Positions 14,031-32,000 of a stretch of DNA of 32,000 nt are shown piece after piece. The stretch covers positions 1,170,001 to 1,202,000 of the forward strand of contig NZ_CP007754.1 in assembly GCF_000757865.1 (NCBI RefSeq), in the 5' to 3' direction. The DNA comes from Prochlorococcus sp. MIT 0801. GTDB taxonomy: Bacteria > Cyanobacteriota > Cyanobacteriia > PCC-6307 > Cyanobiaceae. The notes under the pieces were generated by a model. The model did no database searches. It saw only the letters and a list, made by a program, of their open reading frames with translations, and was not told where the DNA came from. Numbering within the stretch: the stretch's first letter is position 1; the number at the start of each line of letters is the position of its first letter. The translations under genes were made by a program, and so were the position numbers.

Positions 14031-14791
14031 TTAGGTGCTTTTGAATTTACTCCAAGTCTCTTCTTTGTTTTCCCAAAATTAACTTTGACGACTATTCCAT
14101 CAGTTGGGAGATTTTCGAAAAGTTCACCAGCAAGCCATTCTTTATGCCATCTCTTAACTTGGAGAGGATCAGCAGTTCTATTAGTTGGCGGAATTTCAAA
14201 GAACCATGATTCTAATTTTTTTATATCTTCAATTTCATCTGCAGTACTTCCAAGAATTTCATACGCCACAAAACTAAGACCAGCACCAGTTGGGTTTTTC
14301 TTTCTTAGGTGTCCTCCAGCCAAAGCTTGGGATTTAGTTCTAGAAAGATTTGGCCCATAGAGTTCGCCACGGATCTCAAGTGGTTCTTCTGAAACTGCAA
14401 TTCCATCTTCTGGAAGTTCCACAGGAAGATTGCAAATAGTTCTAGCCGCTTCAAGTACATCTTTTCCACTTCTAGTGAATGCTGCTACTAAGGTTCCAGA
14501 TTGGTATCGAAGACCTAAAGCACAGCCATCAAATTTTGGTTGAACAATCATGGTTTCATTTCTGGCTTTCTCTGCCCACCATTCGCTAAAGCAATAATTA
14601 TCCAAACTAAGTAACTTCATTTTCTGCTGGAAATATGAATTCTGAGGATCAATTTCCTTAAGCCTATTTTCTAACTGATCAAATTGCTTGTCACTTACTT
14701 GAGCATTGCCCGATCTGTAGGCCACATCTAGCTTTTCGACCAAGCCAGAAAGTTCTTTTGCCCACGTTTTGCCCACGCTATTATTTCCCAT
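14006..14791 (-). CDS. Stand-alone NAD-dependent-DNA-ligase-type adenylation domain protein (domain Ia plus nucleotidyltransferase only), copy 1
   Basis: The start is taken at ATG 14789-14791 (MGNNSVGKTW...). The tracked N-terminal 32 aa (..GSTRSQVRILSPR..) is read-through of the tRNA fragment. LigA motifs are present: domain Ia YRSGNAQVSDKQFDQLENRLKEI, motif I QPKFDGCAL (KxDG), motif III IRGELY, motif IV DGIVVKV and motif V NWAIAMK. At 261 aa it has no OB, Zn-finger, HhH or BRCT domains. Confidence 0.7.
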   Translation of the reverse strand: MGNNSVGKTWAKELSGLVEKLDVAYRSGNAQVSDKQFDQLENRLKEIDPQNSYFQQKMKLLSLDNYCFSEWWAEKARNETMIVQPKFDGCALGLRYQSGTLVAAFTRSGKDVLEAARTICNLPVELPEDGIAVSEEPLEIRGELYGPNLSRTKSQALAGGHLRKKNPTGAGLSFVAYEILGSTADEIEDIKKLESWFFEIPPTNRTADPLQVKRWHKEWLAGELFENLPTDGIVVKVNFGKTKKRLGVNSKAPNWAIAMKN

Positions 14792-14879
14792 TAAAAAAGA
14801 CAGGCTGGGAAACCTGTCTCTGACTGATCGGGGCGACAGGATTCGAACCTGCGACCTAGTGCTCCCAAAGCAATCGGTT
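14789..14879 (-). repeat. att repeat 1: 3' 44 nt of tRNA-Pro(UGG) (14828-14871) plus its terminator; not an intact tRNA
   Basis: The reverse complement reads GC-TTTGGGA-GCACT-AGGTC-GCAGG-TTCGAAT-CCTGT-CGCCCCG-A. This gives the anticodon loop with UGG, the variable loop, the T-arm, the 3' acceptor strand and discriminator A. The hairpin AGACAGG/CCTGTCT plus T6 follows. No 5' acceptor strand (CGGGGCG) or D-arm lies upstream. It is 88/91 identical to 24511-24601. Confidence 0.85.
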
Positions 14880-14991
14880 GTACACATGAGACTGGTATAA
14901 AGATCTAATCCCTGACTAAAAATATTCTAGCTATTGTAATGAGTTTGAGACTAACAATTGAAATGAATATCTATTTGTTTTAACTTGTATT

Positions 14992-15018
14992 TACTCAGGA
15001 GATCCCGCTGAGATCCCG
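14992..15018 (+). promoter_or_regulatory. Arm-type repeat, left arm of element 1 (just upstream of int1)
   Basis: TACTCAGGAGATCCCGCTGAGATCCCG contains a tandem GAGATCCC-gct-GAGATCCC. The same 27-mer, with 2 mismatches, recurs at 24472-24498 at the opposite end of the element. Confidence 0.55.
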
Positions 15019-15038
15019 CTTTAAAGACTTCATCCTTA

Positions 15039-16424
15039 ATGAAAGCTCGTTCAGAAGCACCAGATTGGGTTCAAAGCATGAGGATCTTTCTTAGGGGGGA
15101 GGTTGGAGCAAACTGGCAGGTCACAACAAAAGGCAGGAGAAGGGCTTGTTTAGGTGTCAGGTTTGACGATGGAACGAGAGTCTTTAAAAATCTCCCTGTC
15201 TTATGGGAGAGGGCACAGCAAGCGAAGATCCAAGAGCTTGTTCTTGAAGTACATGAATTAGTGGTCAAGAAAAAGATATGCGGACTAGACGAAGCTATTG
15301 ATCGAATCAACAAAGCCAATACAGAAGTTCCTAGTGCAGCAGACAGGGCAAATCCAATGCTTCTTCTTGCCGCATGGGAAAAATACGAACACTACAAGGT
15401 GAAACAAAAAGGGGATGTCACTCAAGCGAATTGGAATAAAGAATATGGAGGGAGACCAAATACAAAAATCAACCCTCCAAGGCCAAAGGACAAAGGGAAA
15501 ACATATTTAAGGTTTAAGCAAATAGTGAAAACGGCTACCAATGCTAATGAACTATTAATCCAAATTGGTGACTACGAAGATAAAAATAAAAAGCCCGAAC
15601 CTATTAAGCCTTTAGAAGCTGGAAGTCGTAGCAGGCAAATCAGAGTTCAACATGTTGCAGCTTTTTTAAGATGGGCAACTTCAAAAAAATCAGGTTATTT
15701 ACTAAATCCAGAGAATTGGTCTGCGCCACCAAGGAATGCAATCGATGATTACGTAGGAGTTAAGTCAGCCAAGAAAAAGAAAGAAACTTCTAGTCCAACA
15801 GTTGCGATTGAAGATGACGATCTTTTAGCGCTATTAGGCTCACTACCCATAGACATAGACAAAGAAGAGAAAAGGCATCGATTAAGAGATCGTGCAATGG
15901 AGTGGGACTTTGCTCTAAAGCTTGCAATTACTTATGGCCTACGTCCTGAGGAAGTACGACATGAGCATCTAACGATCAAAAAGAATGACAAGGAATATAT
16001 GTTCTGCACCTATTGCAAAAAGTCTGGGGGAGGTATTACCAGGCCTCGCAGACTATGGCCGATCCATCCCGAATGGGAGAAGAAATGGCATTTATTGGAA
16101 CGTATTAAAAAGAGAGATCCTTTACCAAGAATGAAAGCTGGTGCAGGTGATGCATTTAGGAATTACCTACGTTTTAATGAGGTCTGGAAAAAATTAAAAT
16201 CAGATGTAGGTGTTGTGCCCTACAGCTTTAGACATTCCTATAGCAAGCGGGCACATCAAATTTACAAATTAAGTGATACAGAAGTTGCAGCTTTTATGGG
16301 TCACAGTGTCCCTGTACATAACGCTCGCTATGCTCAGTGGAGCACCGAAACTATGCTAGAAAGATCAATGGAACGTGCTATAAAATTCAGGAACATCCTC
16401 GAGGGTTCGCAAGTGGTCAATTAA
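15039..16424 (+). CDS. int: Tyrosine recombinase / integrase 1
   Basis: 461 aa. The catalytic signature is GLRPEEV (Arg I), FRHSYSKRA (HxxR) and MGHSVPVHNARYAQW (His/Tyr nucleophile). It lies about 160 nt from the att repeat. Confidence 0.9.
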   Translation: MKARSEAPDWVQSMRIFLRGEVGANWQVTTKGRRRACLGVRFDDGTRVFKNLPVLWERAQQAKIQELVLEVHELVVKKKICGLDEAIDRINKANTEVPSAADRANPMLLLAAWEKYEHYKVKQKGDVTQANWNKEYGGRPNTKINPPRPKDKGKTYLRFKQIVKTATNANELLIQIGDYEDKNKKPEPIKPLEAGSRSRQIRVQHVAAFLRWATSKKSGYLLNPENWSAPPRNAIDDYVGVKSAKKKKETSSPTVAIEDDDLLALLGSLPIDIDKEEKRHRLRDRAMEWDFALKLAITYGLRPEEVRHEHLTIKKNDKEYMFCTYCKKSGGGITRPRRLWPIHPEWEKKWHLLERIKKRDPLPRMKAGAGDAFRNYLRFNEVWKKLKSDVGVVPYSFRHSYSKRAHQIYKLSDTEVAAFMGHSVPVHNARYAQWSTETMLERSMERAIKFRNILEGSQVVN

Positions 16425-16819
16425 TCTAAATCAACTCTTTTAACTGTTGGTTTTACTTCTAGTTGTCCTTGACTAAGTTTAAAAAGATTCGCATAGGAAA
16501 TAGATTCTTCATCTCCAATTGATTTAATTTGTTCAATTGTTCTAAGAAGTTTTTCTTTAAATTCTTCAGCTTCAGATTTACTACTACAAATACGAAAGAT
16601 GTCATTATGGATTAAAACTCCCCATTGTTTTTTTATTGTTGTATGTGCATCTGCAGGGTCTTTCCGATAAGGAACAAGTCTCCCATTGATTTTCCAATTA
16701 CCTTCCTGAGAGTCTTCAATGATCAGTGATTCAATATTAGAGTTATATGAAGTAATAACTTTGTCCGCATGATCCGACCAATACCTTCGAGAATAGATAG
16801 GAGTAACTTGAATAGTCAT
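16421..16819 (-). CDS. Hypothetical protein (132 aa), convergent with int1
   Basis: Clean ORF whose 3' end overlaps the int1 stop by 4 nt. No family recognised. Confidence 0.45.
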   Translation of the reverse strand: MTIQVTPIYSRRYWSDHADKVITSYNSNIESLIIEDSQEGNWKINGRLVPYRKDPADAHTTIKKQWGVLIHNDIFRICSSKSEAEEFKEKLLRTIEQIKSIGDEESISYANLFKLSQGQLEVKPTVKRVDLD

Positions 16820-17150
16820 GTCTTTAATCCTTTTATTAGTTATTTTTGAGGTTAGAGAAAAAGACTTCCAACAAACATTAATTATTTAACAATTCACATT
16901 TCAAAAATCATAGTTTGATCGATTGAGACATAGCTACTTCTTTCTCATGCACAATCTAACTAAAAATAATTTGTAGATAATAGGTTGCACTTTTCTATAG
17001 ATGTGGATACTCTCCCACTAATAGAGAAGGCACGTTTTTGAGCTAAATCGGACAAAGCTTTTAGTTGCAACGCTAACTAAGACACCGAACTCAAATAGCA
17101 GAGCTAGCGGAAAGCCCTCACCAAATAATAATCTTTACCACTAATGAATA

Positions 17151-17375
17151 ATGTCCACGTCCCAATGGGTATCGACTTCTAATGCTGCAAAGGCCTTAGG
17201 ACTTAATCCTGTAACTCTTCTCCGAAAAAGAGTACAGCTAGAAAAAGATGGTTTCTTAAAACCCAACATCCATTACATAAGAACAGGGCAAACGAAGAAT
17301 TGCTCTTATTTATGGAAATTAGATGCACTTGAGGAATTACTCAGCAAATGGAAAGCTCCTAAGAGGTCCATCTAA
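17151..17375 (+). CDS. Small HTH DNA-binding protein (excisionase/AlpA-like)
   Basis: 74 aa. WVSTSNAAKALGLNPVTLLRKRV is a helix-turn-helix of the MerR/excisionase type. Its stop overlaps the next ATG (TAATG at 17373-17377). Confidence 0.6.
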   Translation: MSTSQWVSTSNAAKALGLNPVTLLRKRVQLEKDGFLKPNIHYIRTGQTKNCSYLWKLDALEELLSKWKAPKRSI

Positions 17376-19225: not shown

Positions 19226-19422
19226 TGTCATAAATTAAAAATGTCATCCCCAAATACGTTCCAGTGCAATAGAAGAGAAAGATACAATAATAATAAATGA
19301 CAAAAAACTAACACCCCACAAGTGCTTGCTGGTTCGTACAAATTAAAAGTGTAGACACATAAATTAAATGATTTTTTCTAACTTAAAAACCCTAAAATAA
19401 CTACAGAAAAATTTCTAGCACT

Positions 19423-19581: not shown

Positions 19582-20028
19582 ATGACTTTGACTGATTTCG
19601 AACCAAGAAGAAAAGGAAGACCTTCTATAGAAGAGATACCTCTGCCTCCTCACGTACAAAGAGCACTTGTTCTCAGAGGCAATGGATCGTCATGGAAAGA
19701 TGCTGCTGAATCAGTAGGGATGGATTATCGAACACTCAGGAAATACGTCAGAGATCATCCTGATGCAAATGAGTTCCTGGAACGTCAAACACAAGACGCT
19801 TTAGATCAAAGCCATAGCAAACTCATTGCTGCAGCACCTGCAGCGGCACAAAGATTAATCGATGTAATTAATGACGAGGGCAATAGAGGTTATGTAGTTG
19901 TTCAAGCTGTTGAGAGTTTATTTAGGATTATTGATCGAGGTATTACAGATCGAGAGAACGCTGAGCAACTCAAAGAGATTAGAAACTCTATAAATGCTCT
20001 TGAAGGTGGAAAGATAATTAATGTCTGA
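19582..20028 (+). CDS. HTH-domain protein resembling a phage small-terminase subunit or regulator
   Basis: 148 aa. RKGRPSIEE...GSSWKDAAESVGMDYRTLRKYVRDHPDANEFLERQ is followed by a helical coiled region. This layout is common in TerS proteins. The functional call is tentative. Confidence 0.4.
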   Translation: MTLTDFEPRRKGRPSIEEIPLPPHVQRALVLRGNGSSWKDAAESVGMDYRTLRKYVRDHPDANEFLERQTQDALDQSHSKLIAAAPAAAQRLIDVINDEGNRGYVVVQAVESLFRIIDRGITDRENAEQLKEIRNSINALEGGKIINV

Positions 20029-20063
20029 ATGGCCTAGATAAGCTAGAAAGGTAGAAAGAAGTA

Positions 20064-21293
20064 ATGATGTTTATGCAACTAAGGCTATTACTCTTTCTTT
20101 CTCTTCTACCCTCAATATTCTTCATAGAAGCTAAGTCCTTTGGAGTATTAAGTGATAACTGCAATGCGAACAAATACACACCAGCTGAATTATTTAAATC
20201 GAAAGTAAATTCCGTCGTTGTTATCACCTCTGAAGGAAGTCAAGGGAGTGGATTTGTAGTTGAAAGACGCAAAGGTCATTCTTATATACTTACCAATGCT
20301 CATGTTGTCGGTAATAAAAAACGAGTAGACGTTAAATGGAATGATGGAGAAGTTGATCGAGCAGAAGTAGTTGGGAACTTGGGGGGGGATAAACTTGAGA
20401 GAGATCTTGCATTAATTAAAGTCGCTGGAACGAAAGGAACACCAATAAAACTTAGTAAAAATTCGCCAGAAGTTGGTTCTGATGTCGTCGTGATTGGAGC
20501 ACCTAGTGGTCTCGAATTTAGTCTGACAAGAGGTGTTGTTAGTCAAATTAGAGATCGAGAGAATTTTGTCCAAATTGATGCCCCTGTAAATCCTGGCAAC
20601 AGCGGTGGTCCTGTATTTAATAATGGTGGATGTGCGATTGGTGTTGTTACCTTCAAATCTGGTGAAGGGACAGAGGGACTCAACTTTGCTATCGGGAATA
20701 AGCAAATAACAAAGTTTTTAAAAAATCCAATTATTGATGAAGAGGCAATTAATAAACAAACACTTGCGAATCTCCCATTACCACCAAAATCAATTGAAGG
20801 ACCATTCCCGCCTTTTGAATTTGAATATGGAGAAACTTACAGTCAAATACAAGTTAACAAAGGGAATAAAGAATGGACTACTCTCACTGTAACAACTGAA
20901 TTGTCACCTAATAGAGAGCCAAAAACAAATCGATTAATGATAGAAAATAAATCCATCAGAAAAGATGAAGACTGGTTTTCTGTAAAAGCTATAAGAAACG
21001 CCCTATCAACCTTTGCCGAGGTCACCGTTCAAAAAACAGGTCAAAAAGTTTATCTCTCTGGTTCCTACCCTTTTGAAAGAAAAATCAATTGCAAAGATCA
21101 AATAGTTCAGCATGGTCCAACAACTTATAAAGGGAGAACAACGGGACCAACTAACTATTACAAAGTTGGTCCAGGCTGGTTTATGACAAAGTACGAGATC
21201 AAAAAAGGCAAATTAGTTGATCTGCCCGGGAACAGCAAAGAAGTCGATCAAATGGAAAACGCTGCTTTGTTTAATTATTTTTGCAAAGGCTAA
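20064..21293 (+). CDS. Secreted trypsin-like (S1C/HtrA-type) serine protease with a non-PDZ C-terminal domain of unknown function
   Basis: A signal peptide is present. The catalytic triad context is TNAHVV (His), RDLALIKV (Asp) and GNSGGPVF (Ser). The last about 190 aa contains no recognisable PDZ domain. Confidence 0.85.
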   Translation: MMFMQLRLLLFLSLLPSIFFIEAKSFGVLSDNCNANKYTPAELFKSKVNSVVVITSEGSQGSGFVVERRKGHSYILTNAHVVGNKKRVDVKWNDGEVDRAEVVGNLGGDKLERDLALIKVAGTKGTPIKLSKNSPEVGSDVVVIGAPSGLEFSLTRGVVSQIRDRENFVQIDAPVNPGNSGGPVFNNGGCAIGVVTFKSGEGTEGLNFAIGNKQITKFLKNPIIDEEAINKQTLANLPLPPKSIEGPFPPFEFEYGETYSQIQVNKGNKEWTTLTVTTELSPNREPKTNRLMIENKSIRKDEDWFSVKAIRNALSTFAEVTVQKTGQKVYLSGSYPFERKINCKDQIVQHGPTTYKGRTTGPTNYYKVGPGWFMTKYEIKKGKLVDLPGNSKEVDQMENAALFNYFCKG

Positions 21294-21344
21294 AAACCAA
21301 AATATTCACAAAGGACACATACCACAATCCTTCAAAAACTTCAC

Positions 21345-21470
21345 ATGAAATCTCAGGAATTATCTGCTGAAGAACAAGCTCTCTGGAATGAGGTTGAAGA
21401 AAGAATTGATCGTAATTTGAAAAAAGAATTATTTGAGAGGCTTAAAGAGTATGGTTTGAAAATTGAATAA
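21345..21470 (+). CDS. Possible 41-aa helical peptide (below the ORF-track cutoff)
   Basis: Manual translation gives MKSQELSAEEQALWNEVEERIDRNLKKELFERLKEYGLKIE*. Confidence 0.2.
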   Translation: MKSQELSAEEQALWNEVEERIDRNLKKELFERLKEYGLKIE

Positions 21471-21550
21471 GTTTTTATGTGATATTTGTTTTAACTAGAT
21501 CAGCTAGAAAGGTATAGAGATCTATATTCCTCATACAGAAAGAGTCCTAA

Positions 21551-22753
21551 ATGAAGCCAGACTTACGAATCACTGATCCTGATGATTTCGAGAAAGTCGT
21601 AGCAAGACAATGTATGACTTTGGGCTACGAAGTCGTAATGCCAACAAAAAACAATCCCGGATACGACATTGAATTAATTAAAGGGAAAGAAAGAATCGCT
21701 GTACAAGTTAAATGTCATAAAGCAAAGCAAAACACAGGTCAATACAAAAAGTTTGTTGCTTTTTTAGAACTTCCAATAGCTTCAAATTTCACTAGTGGAT
21801 GGTTTATCTCGCAAAGTGGATATAGCAAAAATGTTTTAGCTCTTGCTGAAGCAGATCGAGAGCCAAATCTAAAGCTAGGAACTTCCTCACAAAGAGGAAT
21901 CAAATGGAATTATGACCCTGATTTAGCCCCAGGAGAAAGCCCTGAAGAAGAGAAAGAAGAGGATATAGAGGAAAAGAATGTAAAAGATGAAGCAGTCAAA
22001 TATTTTGGAATTTTCACTTGTAAAGGAGGTGTTGGGAAAACGACTGTTGCAGCTCATCTGGCTGGTGCATTCGCAATAATGGGTTATGACGTAATCCTGC
22101 TAGATCTTGATCCTGACAGGAATTTGAGGAAATTGTTTCTTCAAGATCAGGACTCTGATGAAGATGCTTCTTTGTATATCCCCCCCAATAAAAAAGGTTT
22201 TTCAGGAGCAACAATCACTGTCTTAAATGCCGACGAATGGGATGAAAGGTCATATTCCGAAAAAGTCGTTATTTGTGATTGCTCTCCTGTCCTTTCCGAA
22301 AATCCTAAGTATCTAATAAGAAAATTTGATTATTGCGTAATACCCACAACCCTTAATCCTCTTGGTATCGCAAAGAATGGCGATGTGATCACAAGAACTT
22401 TCAAACATATTAGAAAAATGAATAACAAGGCTGAAATGTTTTGTTTGATCAACTCATATAGCGGAGCTCAATCATACGAAGAAAGAAATAAACATCTATT
22501 AGCCTTGGTTGAAAAGCCAATCAAGGAATATCAAAAGAACGATCCAAAATGTCAACTTATACATCCTGATTATGTGAAGATTAGAGAAAGTAGAGCTCTT
22601 CGATATTGGGGGTATCACCTTGTCGATGGATCTCCACCTCAATTAGCTTTCAAATCTGTTGCTAATAGAAGTGCTCCAAGAACTGACTTCATGCAATTAG
22701 CAGAATATTTAGAGGATCACACCTCAATCACTTCAACAAGAGAACTTGATTAA
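21551..22753 (+). CDS. Fusion protein: N-terminal Mrr-like PD-(D/E)xK nuclease domain plus C-terminal ParA/MinD-type deviant Walker A ATPase
   Basis: The N-terminal sequence ...GYDIELIKGKERIAVQVKCHK gives a D...E-x-K core as in Mrr_cat. An acidic linker follows (PEEEKEEDIEEKNVKDE). Then GIFTCKGGVGKTTVAAHLAGAFAIMGYDVILLDLDPD gives the KGGxGKT deviant Walker A and Walker A' region. Confidence 0.75.
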   Translation: MKPDLRITDPDDFEKVVARQCMTLGYEVVMPTKNNPGYDIELIKGKERIAVQVKCHKAKQNTGQYKKFVAFLELPIASNFTSGWFISQSGYSKNVLALAEADREPNLKLGTSSQRGIKWNYDPDLAPGESPEEEKEEDIEEKNVKDEAVKYFGIFTCKGGVGKTTVAAHLAGAFAIMGYDVILLDLDPDRNLRKLFLQDQDSDEDASLYIPPNKKGFSGATITVLNADEWDERSYSEKVVICDCSPVLSENPKYLIRKFDYCVIPTTLNPLGIAKNGDVITRTFKHIRKMNNKAEMFCLINSYSGAQSYEERNKHLLALVEKPIKEYQKNDPKCQLIHPDYVKIRESRALRYWGYHLVDGSPPQLAFKSVANRSAPRTDFMQLAEYLEDHTSITSTRELD

Positions 22754-22809: not shown

Positions 22810-23013
22810 ATGCAAAAAATGCTAATCACAGTAGGACTACTGATCGCATCAATAGGTGTTCTATATCCTTACTTAAAACGAATAGGGTTAGGACGATTGC
22901 CTGGGGACATCATTATTCGAAGTGAAAACTCATCTTTTTATTTTCCAGTAGTTAGCTGTATTGCCATCAGCCTGCTTCTTTCAGTCATTTTTAATTTATT
23001 TCGATCCTCCTAA
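22810..23013 (+). CDS. DUF2905-like small membrane protein
   Basis: 67 aa with two TM helices flanking GLGRLPGDIIIRSEN, the characteristic (K/R)LPGDI motif. Confidence 0.55.
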   Translation: MQKMLITVGLLIASIGVLYPYLKRIGLGRLPGDIIIRSENSSFYFPVVSCIAISLLLSVIFNLFRSS

Positions 23014-23201
23014 TGAGTTTCGCTGATAACTGGGCCAGGGTTTTTGTTGTGATTACTTTTCTAACTTTTGGAGAAGCTCAGATCATTGGTGGCATCGTTC
23101 CGAACCTTATTGCTTTTAGCTTGTTTCTTGGAGCAATTGGATACTTTGCTTTAACTGGAAAAATGGCTGAGATGTTTGGTATTAAAAAACGGCCCAAATA
23201 A
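23013..23201 (+). CDS. Small two-TM membrane protein (62 aa)
   Basis: The start overlaps the previous stop (TAATG). The protein is hydrophobic with a basic C-terminus. Confidence 0.4.
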   Translation: MSFADNWARVFVVITFLTFGEAQIIGGIVPNLIAFSLFLGAIGYFALTGKMAEMFGIKKRPK

Positions 23202-23263
23202 GATTATTCCTCCACCGTTTGACCGCCGATTGCTATCGAAAACGCAGGAATGAAATGACTCAG

Positions 23264-23416
23264 TCAATCCTTATTATCAAATTCTTCTTCTTTCTGGATT
23301 TTAATTTCAACTCTCATATTCATTCCTAAAAAAACAATGATGACTCCTATTACCGGAAGCCAAAGGCCAAATTGTTTTGATTCAGCTGCTGCTTGATTAA
23401 AAATATCAGGAGTCAT
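23264..23416 (-). CDS. Possible 50-aa single-TM peptide (below the ORF-track cutoff)
   Basis: Manual translation gives MTPDIFNQAAAESKQFGLWLPVIGVIIVFLGMNMRVEIKIQKEEEFDNKD*. Its ATG overlaps the stop of the upstream small ORF (TAATG). Confidence 0.3.
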   Translation of the reverse strand: MTPDIFNQAAAESKQFGLWLPVIGVIIVFLGMNMRVEIKIQKEEEFDNKD

Positions 23417-23574
23417 TATTGATTAACACTCCATTTATCTTGATAAGGAAGTTGGTAATCCTCTTTATTCATAGGAATCCAACTCCAATCAACGCAAATG
23501 GTTATTTGATAACCAATTACATATAAAGCAAGCATTGCATTGAATAAATTTATGTGTTGAACGGGAGCATCCAT
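23416..23574 (-). CDS. Possible 52-aa peptide (below the ORF-track cutoff)
   Basis: Manual translation gives MDAPVQHINLFNAMLALYVIGYQITICVDWSWIPMNKEDYQLPYQDKWSVNQ*. It is coupled to the ORF at 23264-23416. Confidence 0.3.
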   Translation of the reverse strand: MDAPVQHINLFNAMLALYVIGYQITICVDWSWIPMNKEDYQLPYQDKWSVNQ

Positions 23575-23758
23575 AATTATCACTAAAAAATTTCACTAAA
23601 TATTCTCACAGAAGATAAGAATGTAGTTGACGGAAAATACTACACAAATTCATCCGTCGGGAGGCCACCTCGAAAGTTACTTGATGTTAATTGGAAGACT
23701 TTTTGCATCTTTCATCTCGATTTTCGTTAAAAATCAAATTCAAATATATTTTTCTTCA

Positions 23759-24064
23759 ATGGCTCTTTTTAAACTTGACTGGGCATTTCCTACTCAGGAA
23801 TCATCATTTGCAGGAGGAGAAAAATTTCTTGAATATCTTGAAGCTGGTGGTCCAGCTGACGAAACTGAAGGTTTTAAAATTCTTTGGCGTGTAACCAACC
23901 CACTTAATGGAACAGGTAGCTTCGTCGCTGAAGCAACTGATATCAGCAAGATGTGGGAACACGCTGCTCCTTGGATCAAAGGGTTTGGATGTATGTGCGA
24001 AGTAGAGGCTGTGTTCTCAGACGAGCAATTTGTTACTACTGCGAAAAAAATCTACGCATCTTAA
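23759..24064 (+). CDS. Hypothetical soluble protein (101 aa from ATG 23759)
   Basis: The tracked ORF starts at TTG 23627. The ATG at 23759 (MALFKLDWAFP...) is the more plausible start. It is followed by a strong terminator. Confidence 0.5.
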   Translation: MALFKLDWAFPTQESSFAGGEKFLEYLEAGGPADETEGFKILWRVTNPLNGTGSFVAEATDISKMWEHAAPWIKGFGCMCEVEAVFSDEQFVTTAKKIYAS

Positions 24065-24136: not shown

Positions 24137-24137
24137 A

Positions 24138-24471: not shown

Positions 24472-24498
24472 TACTCGGGAGATCCCGCTGAGATCCCA
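24472..24498 (+). promoter_or_regulatory. Arm-type repeat, right arm of element 1
   Basis: TACTCGGGAGATCCCGCTGAGATCCCA matches 14992-15018 at 25/27 positions. It runs directly into the terminal inverted repeat CCAGTCTCAT (24496-24505). Confidence 0.55.
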
Positions 24499-24510
24499 GT
24501 CTCATTTTTG

Positions 24511-24601
24511 CATTAAAAAAGACAGGCTGGGGAACCTGTCTCTGACTGATCGGGGCGACAGGATTCGAACCTGCGACCTAGTGCTCCCAAAGCGATAGGT
24601 T
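24511..24601 (-). repeat. att repeat 2: 3' 44 nt of tRNA-Pro(UGG) (24550-24593) plus its terminator; not an intact tRNA
   Basis: 88/91 identical to 14789-14879 in the same orientation. The sequence to its right (the tRNA 5' side) has no D-arm or CGGGGCG acceptor strand. Confidence 0.85.
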
Positions 24602-24606
24602 TGATT

Positions 24607-24714
24607 AAGCTATAACTTGTCTTTAAAGCTATAACTCTAATTATATCTACAGTTTCTTTCTAATACTTTCTAATACTTTCTAAAATATGGTTGCTTTTTC
24701 CCAAGTTTTTCCCA
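24607..24714 (+). promoter_or_regulatory. Cluster of short direct repeats between att repeat 2 and int2 (candidate arm-type sites/promoter)
   Basis: AAGCTATAACT occurs twice (24607-24617, 24626-24636). CTTTCTAATA occurs as 2.6 tandem units (24656-24685). TTTTTCCCA occurs twice (24695-24703, 24706-24714). None of these resemble the GAGATCCC repeats of element 1. Confidence 0.4.
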
Positions 24715-24747
24715 ATAATATACCTAGTGCCTACAACGTTTTGATAA

Positions 24748-25965
24748 GTGCCACAAACCAAGCAAAAAGAAGAATGGGTTAAGCACTACAAAGACCAACT
24801 AAAAGAATTCTTTGGCAAAGGTTCTGGTTGGTATGTATCGCAAAGTGCTGGAAATATTAAATTAGAAGTTCTTGTTAATGGAAAAAAGGAAAGTAGAACT
24901 CTTCCTTATAAATGGAGCAAATCTGGCTTTGCTGTTGGAGTAGAGGAAATCAAGCAAATATTTAAAAGGTTCCATACTGGAAAAACAACAACGCTTGCTG
25001 GTGCTTGTGACATCACCAGTGCATCCAATTCAACAATTGAGACTAACTGGGAAGAACTATTTACTGCTTATAAAAAATTTGTACCGCAAGCCTCTGCCAA
25101 AACATGGGGAAAAAGTTATTACAAGACATCTGAGCAATTAGAGAAAGCAATAAAACCGCCTGTTTTAAATCAAGTGGAAAGATTGATGGCGAAAAAGAAA
25201 AAGCCTACAAATGGAACTGAATTAATGATGCAGGCGTTGGAGCCTTGGGAACAAGGATCAAGAGCAAGGCAAATTTCTAGAAGAGTATTAAAAGGATTTC
25301 TTGAATGGGCAGTATTAAATGCAAAGCTCACCGCGAATTTCGCTCCGCCTGCTGTTATTCCAGAGATCAGAGATGATAAAAGAATTGGTTATGCCTTAAG
25401 TGATATTCAGATTCTTTCGTTAATAGAAAACGAACCGGATGATAAATGGAAATATGTCTACCAACTTTTAGCGGTATTTGGATTAAGGCCAGCAGAATTA
25501 AAATATCTAAGAATTATTGATGGTGAACTTTGGTGTACTTACGGGAAAAGCATGGGTGGGAAGAAAGGTAAGAAAACAAAACGTAGAAAACTATCACCTA
25601 TTCCTTTAAAAAATATTGATGGGAAAGCCATTGAATTCAACCTTATAAAAAGAATCCAACTTGGTGAAGAAATGCCACCTCTAGGGCGTGAAGGTGAGAC
25701 AGCTATGGCACTTAGAACCCATCTAAGAGGATGGAAATTATGGAAGCAATACAGAGAGGAGGCAACAAAAATCGATGAGGTTCTCGTCCCTTATACGTTT
25801 AGGCATCGATACGCAAAAGCTAGTCATGCTTTGGGTTTTCCAATCAAAAACATTGCTGAAGCAATGGGACACACAGCCGAAGTCCACCTCGAAAATTATG
25901 CAAGATTTCAACCAGATGGAACTACCGAAATGTATAAAGCTGCCTTTGAAGGGATAGCAGCATGA
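24748..25965 (+). CDS. int: Tyrosine recombinase / integrase 2
   Basis: 405 aa with a GTG start. The catalytic signature is GLRPAEL, FRHRYAKASH and MGHTAEVHLENYARF. It shares the family with int1 but is clearly divergent. Confidence 0.9.
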   Translation: MPQTKQKEEWVKHYKDQLKEFFGKGSGWYVSQSAGNIKLEVLVNGKKESRTLPYKWSKSGFAVGVEEIKQIFKRFHTGKTTTLAGACDITSASNSTIETNWEELFTAYKKFVPQASAKTWGKSYYKTSEQLEKAIKPPVLNQVERLMAKKKKPTNGTELMMQALEPWEQGSRARQISRRVLKGFLEWAVLNAKLTANFAPPAVIPEIRDDKRIGYALSDIQILSLIENEPDDKWKYVYQLLAVFGLRPAELKYLRIIDGELWCTYGKSMGGKKGKKTKRRKLSPIPLKNIDGKAIEFNLIKRIQLGEEMPPLGREGETAMALRTHLRGWKLWKQYREEATKIDEVLVPYTFRHRYAKASHALGFPIKNIAEAMGHTAEVHLENYARFQPDGTTEMYKAAFEGIAA

Positions 25966-26726
25966 ACACCAAAGACCTAGCCAAAAAAATTCAATATTTT
26001 GATGATTGCTACAGGAAAGGAGAGGCCAAAATATCTGATGTTGAATTTGATCAGCTAGTTAAACAACTCAAAGCAAGAAATCCTAATCATCCTGCAATTA
26101 ATCCAGAAGGTATGAAACTTCTTTCACTTGGTAATAGCTGCTTTTCCGAATGGTGGGCTGAGAAAGCTAGAAATGAAACCATGATTGTTCAGCCTAAATT
26201 TGATGGCTGCGCTCTTGGCCTTAGATACCAATCTGGAACATTAGTAGGAGCCTTTACTAGGAGTGGGAAAGATGTAACCGAGGCAGCTAGAACTATTGCA
26301 AATATTCCTCTGGAGCTGCCTGAACTTGGTGAGTCAGTAAGTGAAAGTCCAGTAGAAATTAGAGGCGAATTATATGGGCCAAATTTAAGTAGAACTAAAA
26401 GCCAAGCATTAGCAGCTGGTCATTTAAGAAAGCGAGTTCCCACAGGTATGGGGCTTTCTTTCGTGGCTTATGAAATTCTTGGATCAACTCAAAATGAAAT
26501 TGATGATATTAAAAAATTAGAATCGTGGTTCTTTGAAATTCCGCCAACAAATAGAACTGCAGATCCAAAGCAAGTTAAAAAATGGCATAAAGAATGGTTG
26601 GCTGGTGAATTATTTGAGAATCTTCCTTGTGACGGAATTGTCGTCAAAGTTGCGTCTGGAGCAGCCAAACAAAGACTTGGTGTTAATTCAGTTGCACCTA
26701 ATTGGGCATTGGCTTTGAAGGATTGA
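25962..26726 (+). CDS. Stand-alone NAD-dependent-DNA-ligase-type adenylation domain protein, copy 2
   Basis: 254 aa. Its ATG overlaps the int2 stop (ATGA at 25962-25965). Motifs are YRKGEAKISDVEFDQLVKQL (domain Ia), QPKFDGCAL (KxDG), IRGELY, DGIVVKV and NWALALK. It is about 80% identical to copy 1 outside the N-terminus. Confidence 0.75.
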   Translation: MNTKDLAKKIQYFDDCYRKGEAKISDVEFDQLVKQLKARNPNHPAINPEGMKLLSLGNSCFSEWWAEKARNETMIVQPKFDGCALGLRYQSGTLVGAFTRSGKDVTEAARTIANIPLELPELGESVSESPVEIRGELYGPNLSRTKSQALAAGHLRKRVPTGMGLSFVAYEILGSTQNEIDDIKKLESWFFEIPPTNRTADPKQVKKWHKEWLAGELFENLPCDGIVVKVASGAAKQRLGVNSVAPNWALALKD

Positions 26727-26885: not shown

Positions 26886-29108
26886 ATGACTCTGAGTGGT
26901 GTTACTGCATCTGGAAGCAAATATACAGTCTCAGTTATCAATCGACCTGCAAATTTAAACGTAAGCGAATCCCTTTTAGCCCTAAATGGTGAAGCTGCAA
27001 TTAAATATATTGGAGAATATCTCAAATGGCAGGGAACACTAGATATTGGTATTGAATTTGATATCAACAATACAGTTAAGAATTGGGAGGAAACTGGCAA
27101 TGCATATGCCTGTCATGGAGGACATGTATTCGATAGTAAATCAGGAGAATACAGGACAGCTGCATATGTTGAAGCAACAACTGGTATAGATACAACAGCT
27201 AGTAATGGAAGGGAAATAGATGCGGGAACATGGATTTCAAGTTGGGTAACTGATGTTCTTTGGAAAGGATATGGAGATGAAACAGCATACATAGTTGATG
27301 ACTATAGTTACTCTCTTGATGCAGTCGAGGAAAATCCAACAATATCTAATTCAGGAGAAATGAATTTCTTCGCCGTGATGGTTCATGAAATTTTTCATGG
27401 CTTAGGATTCTGGGCAATAAATAACCCTACCTTCTCTCCCTTTGATTTCGACATTATTGGTGACAATGGCTATGTCACTGGAACCAATATCAATAAGGTA
27501 TTAGGCACTTCAATGCCTTGGAACCTGACCCAAGCACATCATGCATTAGGAGATTCAAAACATAATCTTATGTATGAAAGAAAATCGGGAGCGAAGTATC
27601 AAATAACAAATTTAGACCTAGCTGTTCTTGCAGACTATGGATGGGAAATCTACAAATGGGCTGAAAAATTTGTCAGATTATCTGCAAATAATAATGTCGT
27701 TTCAACTGGAGCCGATGAAGGCGAATCAATCACCATAAATATAGACACTGATCATATTGTTGGTGGGGCTACATATAATTATTCAATTTCTGGTATTTCA
27801 GATTCAGATTTAAGTTCTGGCTCAACAAATGGATCGGTCACAGTTGATTCAGATGGAGATACAACTATAACTTTTGGCTTAAAATCTGATGCACTCACTG
27901 AAGGAATAGAAAATTTAATTTTTTCTATTGATGAAGAAAGTATAACCATTCCAATCAATGACACCTCTTTAACTAATCAAACTCCATCTAATATCAGCCT
28001 CTCATCTTCTTCCTTTAATGAGCATATTGCTGCAGCTTCTACGGTCGCAACTCTCTCAACGACGGATGCTGATTCATCCGATACGCATACCTACTCCTTA
28101 GTAACTGGCTCAGGTGATACCGATAATGATTCATTCACCATTGATGGTTCATCTTTAAAAATCAAAGCTTCTCCTGATTACGAGACAAAATCTTCCTACA
28201 ACATTCGCTTACAAACAACTGATAGTAGTGGTGAAACCTACGCCAAAACATTCACGCTTTCTGTTAATGATATCGATGAATTCACCGCAACCATTTCAGG
28301 AACATCCAGCACTGATAGTTTACAAAGTACGAGTGGTAACGATTCAATCGATGGGCTAGGTGGTACAGATACAGTTACTTATACCGCCAGCTTCTCCAAC
28401 TATTCCTTTACCCGTGGCACAGACACCCTACAAATAGCCGATCAACGTACGACAGGTACAACCGATGGAACCGATACTCTTAAAAATATTGAATACATTC
28501 AATTTACTGATCAAACAGTAGAAGAATCAAAAGTAGACGTAGTTAAAACCTATAGCGGTAATTTTAGCGATTATAAGTTCTACAACAAAGGTAATGGTAA
28601 ATATGAGATCAAAACTGATTCTGGCTATGACGATATCACTGGCTATCCTCTACTAACATTTACAGGAGAAGCAACAACTAGCTCCTTCCGTGATGTAAGT
28701 GCCATTGTTGATATCAAAGGGACATTTGACCAAGTCACTGGTTTAGACACAGACGATGCAAAGATGTTCCGTTTATATAACGCTTCTTTCAAACGCCTTC
28801 CAGATCCTGATGGGTTGAAGTATTGGATTGGTAAATATAGTTCTGGAGAGAATGATTCAAGAGCAGTTGCATCTTCTTTCTTAGTTTCTGCAGAATTTAA
28901 GGAGCGATACGGAGAGAACGTTTCTAATGCAAAGTATGTTGAGACTCTTTATACAAATGTCCTTGGTAGGGACTATGACCAAGATGGTTATAACTATTGG
29001 CTAGGTAATTTAAATGCAGGTACTGAAACAAGATATGAACTCCTTTTAGGCTTTGCAGAAGCAGCAGAAAACAAAGCACTCTTTACTGAGATGACTGGTT
29101 TTGGTTGA
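26886..29108 (+). CDS. Large multidomain extracellular-type protein: HExxH metalloprotease-like region, Calx-beta-like, cadherin-like and C-terminal DUF4214 domains
   Basis: [13 protein letters not shown] gives an HExxHxxG motif. [13 protein letters not shown]...[22 protein letters not shown] is Calx-beta-like. [18 protein letters not shown]...[36 protein letters not shown]...LSVNDIDE is a cadherin repeat. The C-terminal YWIGKY...AEFKERYG...[22 protein letters not shown] is DUF4214. No N-terminal signal peptide is present, and an in-frame stop lies 36 nt upstream of the ATG. Confidence 0.8.
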
Positions 29109-29120
29109 GACGTGTATTTT

Positions 29121-29354
29121 TTAAAGCACGTTATAAACTCTTCTTTGAATATTTCTTCTAATTTTTTGTTCTAAAGGTATACATCCTTGAGGTTGGAGTT
29201 GGAAGAATACTCTTCCTGAAATTGACTCGACTACATAATCATCAAGTTTACCCTTATTTAACAATCTATAGAGGGTTTTAGTAGATTTATATCCTAATAA
29301 TCGTGCTGTCTGGGAGATAGTGAAAACTTCGAAGGTTCTTGTTTGTTGTTTCAT
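29121..29354 (-). CDS. Small HTH DNA-binding protein (excisionase/regulator-like)
   Basis: 77 aa. FTISQTARLLGYKSTKTLYRLLNKGKL is a helix-turn-helix. Confidence 0.55.
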   Translation of the reverse strand: MKQQTRTFEVFTISQTARLLGYKSTKTLYRLLNKGKLDDYVVESISGRVFFQLQPQGCIPLEQKIRRNIQRRVYNVL

Positions 29355-29536
29355 CTTACGTTTTTTACATTTGCGTAAACAGTAGTTAATGCTATACTTC
29401 TCGGCTTTTCTGTTAAAGATCCGTGTAAAACCGTGTCCATATTTAGTGGCCTGTGCTTACTGGAATTTTGGGCCCCGAAAGTAACCTCATCAAAACGGCC
29501 AGAGAAGATCCATCACACCATATATAGACAATAATA

Positions 29537-29572
29537 AGGGGGGGGAGAAACACTCCTGAAACTCCCCCCAAT
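29537..29572 (-). terminator. G/C-homopolymer hairpin downstream of the capsid gene
   Basis: GGGGGGAG (29539-29546) / CTCCCCCC (29561-29568) with a 14-nt loop in AT-rich flanks. No clean T-tract follows, so terminator function is uncertain. Confidence 0.4.
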
Positions 29573-29592
29573 TTATTATTTAGTAATAAGAA

Positions 29593-31194
29593 TTAGGTAG
29601 CAATGGCGTCAACCATTGCAGCAAATGATTGAGGGTGCCTAACAGCTATATCGATTGATTGTAAGGCTCTAATACCTGTTGTTCCTTTTGCAAAGTCTGT
29701 ATATGGATCAACAAGAATTTCTAAGTTACCCCACATTCCAATCATTAAGTCTGCAAAGTTTCCATAAATAATTGCACTTAAATTTGATCCAGTGCCTTTA
29801 GATAAGTTGCTTGGAACATTGTTGCTAACAACTAAACGTCTACCGCTGATCCTTGAATCACCTAAAGATGCACCATAAGGATTTAATAGATAATTACTTT
29901 GATCGTCTTTAAGTTGTGATAGTGCTGCTTCAACTTTGGTATTAGTTAAATAGCCAGCCGTTGAGACATCAGCGTTATCAATAGAGATTTCTTTTTTTAG
30001 CTCAAGTAAATGATCAATTGTTGGTGCAAGACCATTTGTTCCACCTGCAACGCTACCTATTCCACTTGTGTTGAGAATTCCTCTAGGTTGATTAGATGAT
30101 CCTGTTCCTGTAATAGCAGCTAAATCAATTGCCTCTGCAATAACAGCTAGGAAATCACTTCTTACTAAACCCTCTATCTCTGGTGTTGCCTGTAGATCCA
30201 TTAAATGACTGAATTTGCTATATGCACCAATGGTTTTGGGTGTCATTGCAATACTGCCTAAAGCTCCAGTTGACTCAGTAATTGAGTCAGAATTGTCTGC
30301 ACCAATCCAATAGGCACTGGCTGATCCACTACGAGTAGGAATATCGACATTGCCCACTAATGATGGAAGCATTGTTGCTCCAAGTTCAGCTACAGCAAGG
30401 CTGTTTCTGAGACTATCTACAAATCGATCTGCAAGATGTTCAGTCGCAATCAGATTGCCACCAGAAGCAGCAGTGCCAGCCACATAAGCCCTTGTAGACC
30501 AACCGTTAGAAGGGACGAAGAAGCCTTGAGTTCTTTTGCCATTAACTCTTTCAAGTTCTGTATTTATTTCTAACTCTCTTCCAGATAAACCTCTGCCAGA
30601 TGCGATACCTTTTGCAGCTTGAATAATAGAGAAATTATCTGATTCTCTTGCAAACTCATCTGGAATAGATGTGTTGATTGGTTCGTAGTTTGAAACTGGA
30701 GTTGTTGTCATTTGATTAGCAGGAATTGATGTGGAACGATTAACGCCAATAGATGGATCAGCAGGGATTGAAACGATGCTCAACTCAACTGGTTGCCATG
30801 AAATAGCTCTTGTTATTTCTTCGTCTTGCTCTACTTGATTGACTTGATATCCAACAGAAATATTTTCCAGAATATTATTTTCAACATCTTTTCTAATCTC
30901 TAATGCTCTTGGATTAGTCGCCCATTTAATAGTGGCTTTGCCTCTCTTGTCTTCGATCCAAGCTTTGGTGACTTTGCCCAAAACTTGGTTGGGATCATGG
31001 TTGAACAATAGTGGAGCTGCACCTGTATTTAGACGAGTTAAATCAACAGATTCCTCATCATGGTCGAGTACTTCCTCTCCAAAATATCTTTCTACTGGTT
31101 GCTCACTACTAAATGAAAAAGTGAGATTATCCCGTTCTGTTTGAGCATCCATGGGAAGAAATCTCCTTTTGATTTCAACGGTTTTTGTAGTCAT
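29593..31194 (-). CDS. Fusion of HK97-family prohead serine protease (S78) and HK97-fold major capsid protein
   Basis: The N-terminal about 150 aa reads FSFSSEQPVERYFGEEVLDH...LLFNHD...LGKV...ISVGY...ELSIVSIPADP, the S78 His/Ser context. The C-terminal about 330 aa reads GGNLIATEHLADRFVDSLRNSLAVAELGATMLP...AYWIGADN...KFSHLMDLQATPEIEGLV...ILVDPYT, which is Phage_capsid (HK97) family-like. Confidence 0.85.
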   Translation of the reverse strand: MTTKTVEIKRRFLPMDAQTERDNLTFSFSSEQPVERYFGEEVLDHDEESVDLTRLNTGAAPLLFNHDPNQVLGKVTKAWIEDKRGKATIKWATNPRALEIRKDVENNILENISVGYQVNQVEQDEEITRAISWQPVELSIVSIPADPSIGVNRSTSIPANQMTTTPVSNYEPINTSIPDEFARESDNFSIIQAAKGIASGRGLSGRELEINTELERVNGKRTQGFFVPSNGWSTRAYVAGTAASGGNLIATEHLADRFVDSLRNSLAVAELGATMLPSLVGNVDIPTRSGSASAYWIGADNSDSITESTGALGSIAMTPKTIGAYSKFSHLMDLQATPEIEGLVRSDFLAVIAEAIDLAAITGTGSSNQPRGILNTSGIGSVAGGTNGLAPTIDHLLELKKEISIDNADVSTAGYLTNTKVEAALSQLKDDQSNYLLNPYGASLGDSRISGRRLVVSNNVPSNLSKGTGSNLSAIIYGNFADLMIGMWGNLEILVDPYTDFAKGTTGIRALQSIDIAVRHPQSFAAMVDAIAT

Positions 31195-31309
31195 TCCTTT
31201 CCTCTTTTTGTAATTGCAGATAACGTCTTCTCATTGGTGAAGTAAGAGCATCATCTAGGACGTGTTTGCACACTCTTGGTGTGTCGTCATCAACTAAAAG
31301 CTGAGTCAT
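31175..31309 (-). CDS. Possible 44-aa ORF overlapping the capsid start (below the ORF-track cutoff)
   Basis: Manual translation gives MTQLLVDDDTPRVCKHVLDDALTSPMRRRYLQLQKEERNDYKNR*. It overlaps the capsid-fusion start by 20 nt in another frame. Confidence 0.2.
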   Translation of the reverse strand: MTQLLVDDDTPRVCKHVLDDALTSPMRRRYLQLQKEERNDYKNR

Positions 31310-31631
31310 AAAATATTGCGAATAATATATTTTATCTGTAAAAACTATTGGTATAGCTGTTGTTTTGGTGGGTAAATGAAATTAAAAACTAAATAGTATT
31401 ATATGCCAACTAATAACTCTTAATTAATGTTAAAACGACTAAAAATGTCTTAAAACAGCTTAAATACATATTTCAATTTCGATACATAATTAATGCTGTC
31501 TCGGTGCCTCAGGTGTCTCGGCATTTTCTATACCTTTCCCAGTATTGTTATCTATCTATAAATTACTACCTTCAACTTTATTATCTGAGACACTGAGGCG
31601 GAAGGGCTAAAGCCCAACCACCAGAACAGGT

Positions 31632-32000
31632 TTACCCCGCCTCGGAAGAAGCCAAATCTACTGAGGCTTCTGAGGCAGACTTTCTCCATAGTCTTGGTTG
31701 CTTGACTCCATTAATTCGTTTTTGATTTTTATCTTGGACGAAACCTAATTCTCTTAGAGCGTTACCAGCTTCCTTACAATCGTGAGCTGTTATACGACCA
31801 CGATCTCTGCAACCACTTAAGTGGAGAGCTGTTTCTGCAGAGAATCCATCTGATCCTTGCTTATTTACCCACTCATACAAGCTTGAATAAAAAGGATGCT
31901 CAGCTTCAAAGTCACTATTATTCAACTCTGATTGAGCATGTTCTTCAGGAGACAGATAACACTTGTAGCCATTTAGATAAGCGAGGTGAGCAGCTTTCCA
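31632..32000 (-). CDS. Partial CDS (C-terminal about 122 aa; N-terminus beyond the window): C-terminus of a VirE/P4-type primase-helicase-like protein
   Basis: The frame stays open upstream of the tracked TTG (31925) to nt 32000 (WKAAHLAYLNGYKCYLSPEEHAQSELNNSDF...). The tail ...ITAHDCKEAGNALRELGFVQDKNQKRINGVKQPRLWRK resembles the winged-helix-like C-terminal segment found at the end of phage/plasmid primase-helicases. The call is tentative. Confidence 0.45.
   Translation of the reverse strand, partial: WKAAHLAYLNGYKCYLSPEEHAQSELNNSDFEAEHPFYSSLYEWVNKQGSDGFSAETALHLSGCRDRGRITAHDCKEAGNALRELGFVQDKNQKRINGVKQPRLWRKSASEASVDLASSEAG

Follow-up and report, generated by a model that had tools for sequence, protein, structure and literature searches.

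Within a window of 32,000 nt from Prochlorococcus sp. MIT 0801 (NZ_CP007754.1; all coordinates given here are window positions), the 3' part of a tRNA-Pro(UGG) gene together with its terminator is found twice, and to the right of each copy begins an element with its own integrase. These elements are termed A (14880-24510) and B (24602 to beyond 32000); the loci and contigs with which they were compared are referred to by L numbers, and the features of the region are collected in Table 1. MIT 0801 is an LLI-clade isolate with a genome of 1,929,203 bp. The layout recalls that of the tycheposons, which combine a site-specific integrase, mostly of a lineage-specific tyrosine recombinase clade, with hallmark genes and with cargo or phage-interference genes (Hackl et al., bioRxiv 10.1101/2020.12.28.424599).

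The duplicated tRNA-Pro(UGG) unit, the integrases and the gene content

The repeat finder aligned 14784-14879 with 24506-24601 (96 nt, 95% identical, spacing 9722 bp), and in the 91-nt core, 14789-14879 versus 24511-24601, the copies are identical at 88 of 91 positions; the two comparisons agree with the direct repeat described in an initial annotation of this DNA. Such a length cannot arise randomly in 32 kb, so the repeat is not there by chance. A segmental duplication was considered as its origin and ruled out, because the flanks of the two copies are unrelated. Both copies contain the hairpin GACAGG-8 nt-CCTGTC, with a T-run after it on the minus strand, and past the T-run the 3' part of tRNA-Pro(UGG), in reverse complement. 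The match to the intact tRNA-Pro(UGG) genes of relatives is perfect for 45 nt in copy 1 and for 44 nt in copy 2, and stops in both where the anticodon stem-loop begins on its 5' side; the 44 nt that had been annotated for each copy thus hold for copy 2 and fall one short for copy 1. Both are displaced fragments without a 5' half, as had also been proposed, and ARAGORN found zero tRNA genes in the 32-kb window. The terminator is part of the elements' own attachment site (attP) and not a fixed chromosomal flank. Beyond the two copies, the window holds no additional att remnants or integrase fragments, and base composition marks no element boundary in it (GC 0.36-0.42 throughout).

The integrase open reading frames (ORFs) start 160 nt (intA) and 147 nt (intB) to the right of the att copies, both pointing away from the copy, and their products are homologous (24% identity over 421 aa, E 4e-18). 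IntB was recognised as PHROG 1 integrase (2e-15), by the XerA/XerC models of NCBIfam and by Pfam Phage_integrase (6e-6, slightly below the curated cut-off). The earlier assignment of a different tyrosine integrase to each copy stands, with the correction that IntA had no match in Pfam, PHROGs or NCBIfam (a single-sequence search of PDB gave nothing useful either) and had to be confirmed otherwise: its homology, its catalytic residues and its predicted fold all identify it as a tyrosine recombinase. Residues R302, K327, R398, H422 and Y431 are invariant or nearly so in family alignments of 21 and 91 sequences, with Tyr395 in the usual position of the first His of the HxxR motif; the family profile has a match (8e-5) to archaeal XerA (4a8e) that spans box II; the AlphaFold model (pLDDT 90.6) has Tn1549 Int, XerA and Cre as its top PDB matches; and PF27132 XisAC_2nd is present in relatives of IntA. 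Homologues of both integrases come nearly all from Prochlorococcus and marine Synechococcus (188 for IntB at E<=1e-40 in these two genera), and many adjoin tRNA-Pro fragments. A peptide-pattern scan of IMG/VR for relatives of IntA gave no match.

That each element joins an integrase to a replication or packaging module and to cargo, as first annotated, is borne out by the gene content. The gene order in A is int (15039), then the xis-like and helicase genes (17151-19225). Homologues of the 74-aa helix-turn-helix (HTH) protein follow the integrase in L065, L073 and L080, and the equivalent gene of L062, directly upstream of the replication gene, weakly matches DUF1233 (excisionase, Xis). The sigma-like HTH gene is kept near the right end in L020, L018 and L064; L020 has no protease or Mrr-ParA genes between it and the 62-aa gene. 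In many LLI-clade genomes, that 62-aa gene and the GAGATCCC arm after it adjoin tRNA-Pro or a fragment of it. Both arms of A carry a tandem doublet of GAGATCCC (14999-15020 and 24479-24497) within an identical 19-20-nt block, the integrase-side (X) doublet sitting just upstream of intA. The possibility that the block left of copy 2 is native chromosomal flank was rejected, because the same block precedes intA in both MIT 0801 and L064.

As a separate observation, the HtrA-like protease, in which no PDZ domain was detected, lies side by side with the Mrr/ParA fusion. PADLOC matches to them are weak and domain-level only, and the two may form a defence gene pair; a search for the context of the Mrr-ParA gene gave a single 1.9-kb contig and was uninformative.

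In B, the int-lig pair stands at the left, as it also does together in L087 and L088, and VapE at the far right. Homologues of its 77-aa HTH_17 protein were found in L006, L016, L017, L021 and L071. In the B-like element of L088, the corresponding arm contains GCTATAAC twice, TTTCTAATAC, and TTTTCCCTAAA twice, the last at the place of TTTTTCCCAA. Two Logan contigs are 100% identical to the window, and one of them, L001 (the other is L002), covers 28466-32000 and 107 nt further. On a contig with an identical capsid gene, VapE (434 aa) is followed by a 116-aa and a 69-aa gene upstream; assuming collinearity with MIT 0801, the right end of B would lie at or beyond about window coordinate 33500. 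B would extend to about 34 kb, for a total of about 9-10 kb. A homology search with the VapE C-terminus (157 aa) returned only 40-45%-identical homologues, on short contigs.

Table 1. Features of the tRNA-Pro(UGG) array of MIT 0801 (window positions)
Feature	Position	Strand	Description
ligL	14006..14791	-	NAD-dependent DNA ligase adenylation domain alone; Pfam DNA_ligase_aden 4e-23
Orphan arm doublet	14756..14777	+	TTTTGCCCACG x2, period 11; read as right-end (Y) arm of a decayed element; overlapped by the first codons of ligL
att copy 1	14789..14879	-	Hairpin 14799-14818 and 3' 45 nt of tRNA-Pro(UGG) (14828-14872), no 5' half; left junction of A
Integrase-side (X) arm of A	14880..15038	+	GAGAC/GAGATC motifs 14886-14895, 14944-14955; GAGATCCCGCT x2 at 14999-15020
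IntA	15039..16424	+	461-aa divergent tyrosine recombinase, inward-facing; XisA/XisC-related cyanobacterial clade
132-aa ORF	16421..16819	-	Within A; no family match
74-aa HTH protein	17151..17375	+	Candidate excisionase or regulator of A
AAA_25 ATPase, 616 aa	17375..19225	+	RecA/DnaB-like, superfamily 4 (SF4); Pfam AAA_25 2.5e-24; PHROG primase/helicase families; replication module of A
148-aa HTH protein	19582..20028	+	Sigma-70 region 4-like, weak Pfam match; backbone regulator of A-type elements
Cargo of A	20064..22753	+	HtrA-like S1C protease 20064-21293; Mrr-nuclease/ParA-ATPase fusion 21551-22753
Right-end small genes of A	22810..24064	+	DUF2905 22810-23013; 62-aa two-helix membrane protein 23013-23201; DUF3303 23627-24064
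Right-end (Y) arm doublet of A	24479..24497	+	GAGATCCC x2, period 11; same word as integrase-side arm of A
att copy 2	24511..24601	-	Hairpin 24521-24540 and 3' 44 nt of tRNA-Pro(UGG) (24550-24593); right junction of A, left junction of B
Integrase-side (X) arm of B	24602..24747	+	GCTATAACT x2 (24609, 24628); TTTCTAATAC x2 (24657-24676); doublet TTTTTCCCAA x2 (24695-24715)
IntB	24748..25965	+	405-aa tyrosine recombinase, inward-facing
ligB	25962..26726	+	254 aa, NAD-ligase adenylation domain alone, KxDG motif; start overlaps end of intB
Cadherin-like/RTX/DUF4214 protein, 740 aa	26886..29108	+	Pfam matches; cargo
HTH_17 protein, 77 aa	29121..29354	-	Candidate excisionase or regulator of B
Prohead protease-HK97-type major capsid fusion, 533 aa	29593..31194	-	Pfam Phage_capsid 3e-47 and Peptidase_S78; NCBIfam major_cap_HK97 and fusion family
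VapE-like 3' end	31632..32000	-	Superfamily 3 (SF3) helicase/primase; gene leaves the window, B continues rightward

Related loci and the proposed build-up of the array

Species-representative genomes scanned with the tRNA half yielded 18 LLI-clade loci, 10 of them with an intact tRNA-Pro(UGG) at the array end and the others with fragments only. Where an integrase homologue was detected, it lies immediately right of the fragment and reads away from it (L006, L008 copy 2, L010, L014, L016 copy 2 and L018); no integrase was found at four fragments, L005 and L013 (both with too little right flank to judge by), L008 copy 1 and L016 copy 1. A partial tRNA with an integrase to its right, reading away, is the rule in this family. 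MIT 1307 and two single-cell genomes have integrases of the IntA family (61-62% identical) beside this fragment too, and the stretch that follows the fragment is conserved. An A-like element lies at L064 7057-9214, where the integrase and arm, 89% identical in DNA and with the same arm doublet, have a DUF3804 gene as left neighbour. There the integrase is followed straight by the sigma-like regulator, without the Xis-like gene and the helicase, so that the replication module of A would seem optional, dispensable or lost.

Relatives that lack one or both elements, which the initial annotation had proposed to consult, bear on the order of events. An A-type right arm lies directly beside an intact tRNA in L011, L012 and L019, and this is the state before a B-like element arrives; L004 has an intact tRNA bordered by an arm that resembles the one left of copy 1. 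A-like and B-like elements also occur apart in other genomes, with other neighbours and cargo (L064; L087 and L088; L060-L063). This separation tells against a reading in which A and B make up a single composite of about 19 kb, mobilised as a whole, with the internal att copy as a relic. The core is common to all att copies, and the chemistry would allow copy 1 to recombine with the intact tRNA; the two arms of A match each other, however, and the motif of B differs, and joint excision would pair unlike arms. We regard a composite as extremely unlikely.

The two elements initially annotated are both real, and a third, decayed member has to be added to their left. The likely start of ligL, an ATG at 14791, abuts the att repeat, and the gene is a full-length paralogue of ligB (75% aa identity over 251 aa); left of copy 1, an older element has probably decayed so far that this is its only remaining gene. 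The TTTTGCCCACG doublet beside it is known from elsewhere, left of the att copies in L016 and L060 and as the integrase-side arm in L005 and L067. We read ligL and this orphan arm as the right end of an older element that lost its integrase end. The pair ligL/ligB also forms a 613-nt inverted repeat (14008-14620 versus 26112-26724; 76% DNA identity) enclosing element A and intB; recombination between the two would flip about 11.5 kb, which is unlikely given their divergence.

The segment is best explained, with a probability of roughly 0.88, as a tandem array of the tycheposon type formed by successive integrations at the single tRNA-Pro(UGG) of MIT 0801. The target would be the anticodon-loop region of this gene, used repeatedly for site-specific integration, each attP bringing its own tRNA 3' half and terminator; because it does so, each integration would rebuild a working tRNA and push the earlier 3' half, and the earlier element with it, away. 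From oldest to newest, left to right, the order would be the decayed element, A, B and the intact tRNA, which, judging from the sequences of relatives (L017 and others), should lie at the far end of B just past the window. Excision would be the work of Int together with the small HTH proteins; replication would depend on the SF4 helicase in A and on VapE and the ligase domain in B; and B would be packaged with the help of a phage. Both may still be mobile.

Several points weigh against this account. The intact tRNA-Pro and the right arm of B fall outside the window, beyond 32000, and were not read. The circular junction of A that the initial annotation had proposed to look for did not turn up: an IMG/VR scan for a circular or tandem A-type junction gave 0 matches, and the lone metagenome match, L065, links an A-type right arm to a different element. 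Nor was a B-type attP found, the IMG/VR scan with the doublet predicted for B returning four matches that we attribute to chance, since none is related to the window. The lack of circular junctions of either type in these virome and metagenome scans would also be expected if both segments were immobile fossils and the array now fixed island DNA, as would the differences at 3 of 91 positions between the att copies and the presence of decayed members, both here (ligL and the orphan arm) and as integrase-less segments in L008, L016 and L061. Yet the backbone ORFs of A and B are all full length, the integrase catalytic residues are intact, and the arms of A retain their identical doublet block; environmental assemblies contain clusters of at least 90%-identical proteins with 53 members for IntA and 24 for IntB; and tycheposons of other strains excise in culture (bioRxiv 10.1101/2020.12.28.424599). 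Fossilisation of the whole array is thus an unlikely alternative, and a tandem array of integrating elements is retained as the explanation.

B resembles the phage-inducible chromosomal islands (PICIs) in content, the part seen having an integrase, a replication module and a capsid gene in a small island. The B-like element of L088 has an integrase 59% identical to IntB, lig, small genes, protease-capsid and VapE, with about 130 nt from lig to the small genes; the 740-aa gene of B is absent from this otherwise collinear element and is therefore cargo added to a PICI-like backbone. A second relative, L021, is an 8.6-kb IMG/VR contig whose ends overlap by 99 nt and which is therefore circular; its capsid gene product is 65% identical to the capsid fusion of B, and its attP, directly upstream of its integrase, consists of an arm doublet, the terminator, the tRNA half and the same doublet again. 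An HK97-type capsid-protease fusion with a VapE-type replication protein might also be what is left of a defective prophage, the right part of B being unseen, and we judge this very unlikely. The visible 7.4 kb of B contain no portal, terminase or tail genes, and on the contig that shares its capsid gene, all that is seen past this gene is VapE and two small genes. An equally compact layout is found in L088 and in the circular L021, and the protease-capsid fusion is itself a listed tycheposon hallmark.

Arm doublets and the N-terminal module of the integrases

When all junctions were aligned, tandem doublets of 8-11 nt with an 11-12-nt period became apparent at two fixed places: the Y-arm doublet just past the terminator, and the X-arm doublet some 95-135 nt beyond the core, shortly before the start of the integrase gene. 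The doublets are the same within an element and differ between elements. The arms of A match, as set out above; in L061, AGCGCCCC is found on both ends of the segment between att 2 and att 3, with no integrase inside; in the circular L021, TGGACGCA lies on both sides of attP. An IMG/VR scan with the tRNA half gave 21 contigs, among them 11 attP-type junctions with the same word on both arms. Together with A, L061 and L021, the matched arms represent 11 distinct words, while the chance of a shared 7-mer at both places is roughly 1e-4 per junction (a rough estimate, from about four offsets x 4^-7). Three contigs are mismatched, L073 and L080, with two integrases each, and L067, whose arms have different words; they look like junctions between different elements.

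The doublets can be related to a particular part of the integrase. The integrases of L074 and L086, which have different doublets, are 95-100% identical after residue ~100 and only 55-65% identical in front of it; the same pattern is seen for L060 versus L061 and L071 versus L083-85. The boundary near residue 100 is sharp (L074/L086, L060/L061), with an N-terminal module 40-65% identical and the rest about 75-100%, and it coincides with the linker of the IntA model, a low-confidence stretch (96-101) that comes after a domain (residues 9-94) built of one helix, three strands and two further helices. This suggests, from sequence comparison, that the N-terminal domain and the arm sites are exchanged together as a cassette.

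The doublets are probably arm-type sites bound by the integrase N-terminal domain. The integrases would then be heterobivalent in the manner of lambda Int, their C-terminal domains acting on the common tRNA core and their N-terminal domain of about 95-100 aa binding element-specific doublets, GAGATCCC for A and TTTTTCCCAA for B; with unlike arms, every element would be expected to use its own pair of ends for excision, despite the common core. TTTTTCCCAA is the corresponding doublet on the integrase-side arm of B, and the same word is predicted just past the 3' end of the intact tRNA. As a general statement, that the tRNA-Pro elements share one core and carry private 8-11-nt arm words read by a swappable N-terminal module of about 100 aa, and that B is a cargo-bearing satellite-type tycheposon, is a proposal that we favour slightly.

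It may be objected that the doublets could instead bind Xis or another factor. A role as excisionase or regulator binding sites, or as replication iterons, in place of integrase arm sites, has some appeal, since each element encodes a small HTH protein and the integrase-side doublet, just upstream of the integrase start, is in a possible operator position. We nonetheless consider it doubtful: the doublets flank the core on both sides at fixed distances, they change with swaps of the N-terminal ~100 aa in integrases whose catalytic part is 95-100% identical, they are kept in integrase-less segments (L061), and two copies are few for iterons. Integrase arm sites thus remain our preferred identification.

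Some further loci with such doublets may be mentioned. At L061 5600-9835, a 4.2-kb segment between two tRNA-Pro fragments has AGCGCCCC on both arms, a Mrr restriction-endonuclease gene and no integrase; it is possibly a non-autonomous element, open to mobilisation in trans by a cognate integrase. In L007, L012 and L017, a TTTGTCACTCG doublet lies about 95 nt upstream of the 5' end of the intact tRNA-Pro, on the core-genome side, while L019 and L020 have a single copy only; the genomes diverge immediately after TTTGTCACTCG, and variable DNA may also begin on this side of the tRNA. Seven IMG/VR contigs of 14-40 kb (L069, L070, L076 and L082-L085) have the common tRNA-Pro attP with CTAGATTAC doublets on both arms. 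A clade integrase was seen in three of the seven (L083-L085), and several are 25-40 kb long, a size that may suit temperate cyanophages or large satellites better than 10-kb elements.

The adjoining island and comparison with known systems

To the left of the array, window 1328-10053 is a phosphate/arsenic stress island, which agrees with the nutrient/stress island noted there at the outset. Its genes include a pstS-like gene, the chromate transporter gene chrA, a pair encoding a major facilitator superfamily transporter and glyceraldehyde-3-phosphate dehydrogenase (arsenate-resistance-like), arsR, an ACR3-type transporter gene, a DUF3804 gene and small cyanobacterial DUF genes. In L016, L018 and L064, the DUF3804 gene directly adjoins the att fragment in opposite orientation, from which it follows that the island is rearranged between strains. 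Two other features were noted left of the array. A Cyano-1 RNA (RF01701) lies in the island at 10336-10400 (+) with 64.7 bits. A 152-nt direct repeat, 10877-11028 and 13643-13794 (92% identical, 2766 bp apart), is located around DUF411, DUF3721 and other small DUF genes; it has no Rfam match, is absent from every relative locus compared, and folds only marginally better than shuffled sequences (z -1.8 and -2.2).

Among the tycheposons, tRNA-Pro(tgg) is one of seven targets, neighbouring elements are separated by partial tRNA alone, and MIT 0801 is in the published genome table; the list of hallmarks contains the NAD-ligase domain, DnaB-like and VirE helicases, the protease-major capsid protein fusion and xis/HTH_17 regulators (bioRxiv 10.1101/2020.12.28.424599). 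At the level of domains, this list is matched here by DNA_ligase_aden, AAA_25/DnaB-like, VapE/VirE, Phage_capsid with Peptidase_S78, HTH_17 and a DUF1233-like xis. IntA and IntB are both tyrosine recombinases; 3' fragments of tRNA-Pro(UGG) bound A and start B, an intact copy being expected at the end of B; and cargo or packaging genes are present in both, the HtrA-like protease, Mrr-ParA and small membrane proteins in A, and the protease-capsid fusion with the 740-aa DUF4214 protein in B. The array further shares with tycheposons the host genus, the target, partial-tRNA flanks, tandem arrangement, an inward-facing tyrosine recombinase at one end, the presence of both a cargo type and a PICI-like type, and a position at the tRNA-proximal end of a nutrient island. 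Since every tycheposon feature that could be tested is present, the array is an instance of the published kind, and the tycheposon architecture suggested by the initial annotation agrees in layout and hallmark gene types with the preprint (bioRxiv 10.1101/2020.12.28.424599).

Two differences stand out. One is the 740-aa cargo gene of B, a PICI-like element; according to the preprint, PICI-like tycheposons were never observed with cargo (bioRxiv 10.1101/2020.12.28.424599). The other is the matched, element-specific arm doublets, of which there are none in the accessible parts of the preprint and its supplements; arm sites, attP anatomy and the terminator are likewise not mentioned in those parts, and a literature search for Prochlorococcus also returned nothing on them. 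The tycheposon work of Hackl et al. is reported to have appeared later in Cell, in 2023.

Phage lambda Int provides the nearest parallel for the arms, with an extra N-terminal domain behind a linker, short tandem sites about one helical turn apart on both attP arms, and a small HTH excisionase-like gene. Here, in contrast, a tRNA anticodon stem-loop serves as the core, each arm has one direct doublet, many unlike site words go with one common core, and the arm sites are putative. With PICIs and capsid-forming PICIs, B has in common its size (about 9-10 kb), an integrase at one end, a replication protein, a capsid gene, a lack, within the window, of tail, portal and terminase genes, and a relative found as a circle in a virome. 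It differs in that no Stl-like master repressor or terS was identified in it (an HTH_17 gene is present), in its large cargo gene, and in an integrase of a cyanobacterial clade and not of the Tn916/SXT types (bioRxiv 10.1101/2020.12.28.424599).

Anticodon-loop tRNA islands share with the array a crossover in the anticodon loop, the supply of the tRNA 3' part by the element and tandem accretion at a single tRNA; the duplicated unit here differs in that it includes the terminator. Islands that target tRNA genes were reportedly classified by their att site, including the anticodon-loop class, by Williams in 2002.

The tandem arrangement at tRNA-Pro is therefore of an already described kind, and what is added is the arm-doublet rule and a cargo-bearing PICI-like element. 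The array itself provides a worked example of tycheposons from a cultured LLI-clade strain and brings no new principle; tycheposons are thought to build the genomic islands of Prochlorococcus. If the doublets are integrase arm sites, they would explain how many elements can use one tRNA, stacked upon each other and excised one at a time, and would give a sequence rule for locating the true ends of elements, for pairing orphan arms with integrases and for recognising non-autonomous passengers. Should the shared core with private arm words also prove true, the elements would have orthogonal addressing: several could reside in tandem at one tRNA, each excising individually; segments without an integrase would be moved only by the cognate integrase; and the elements would evolve by exchange of N-terminal-domain/arm cassettes.

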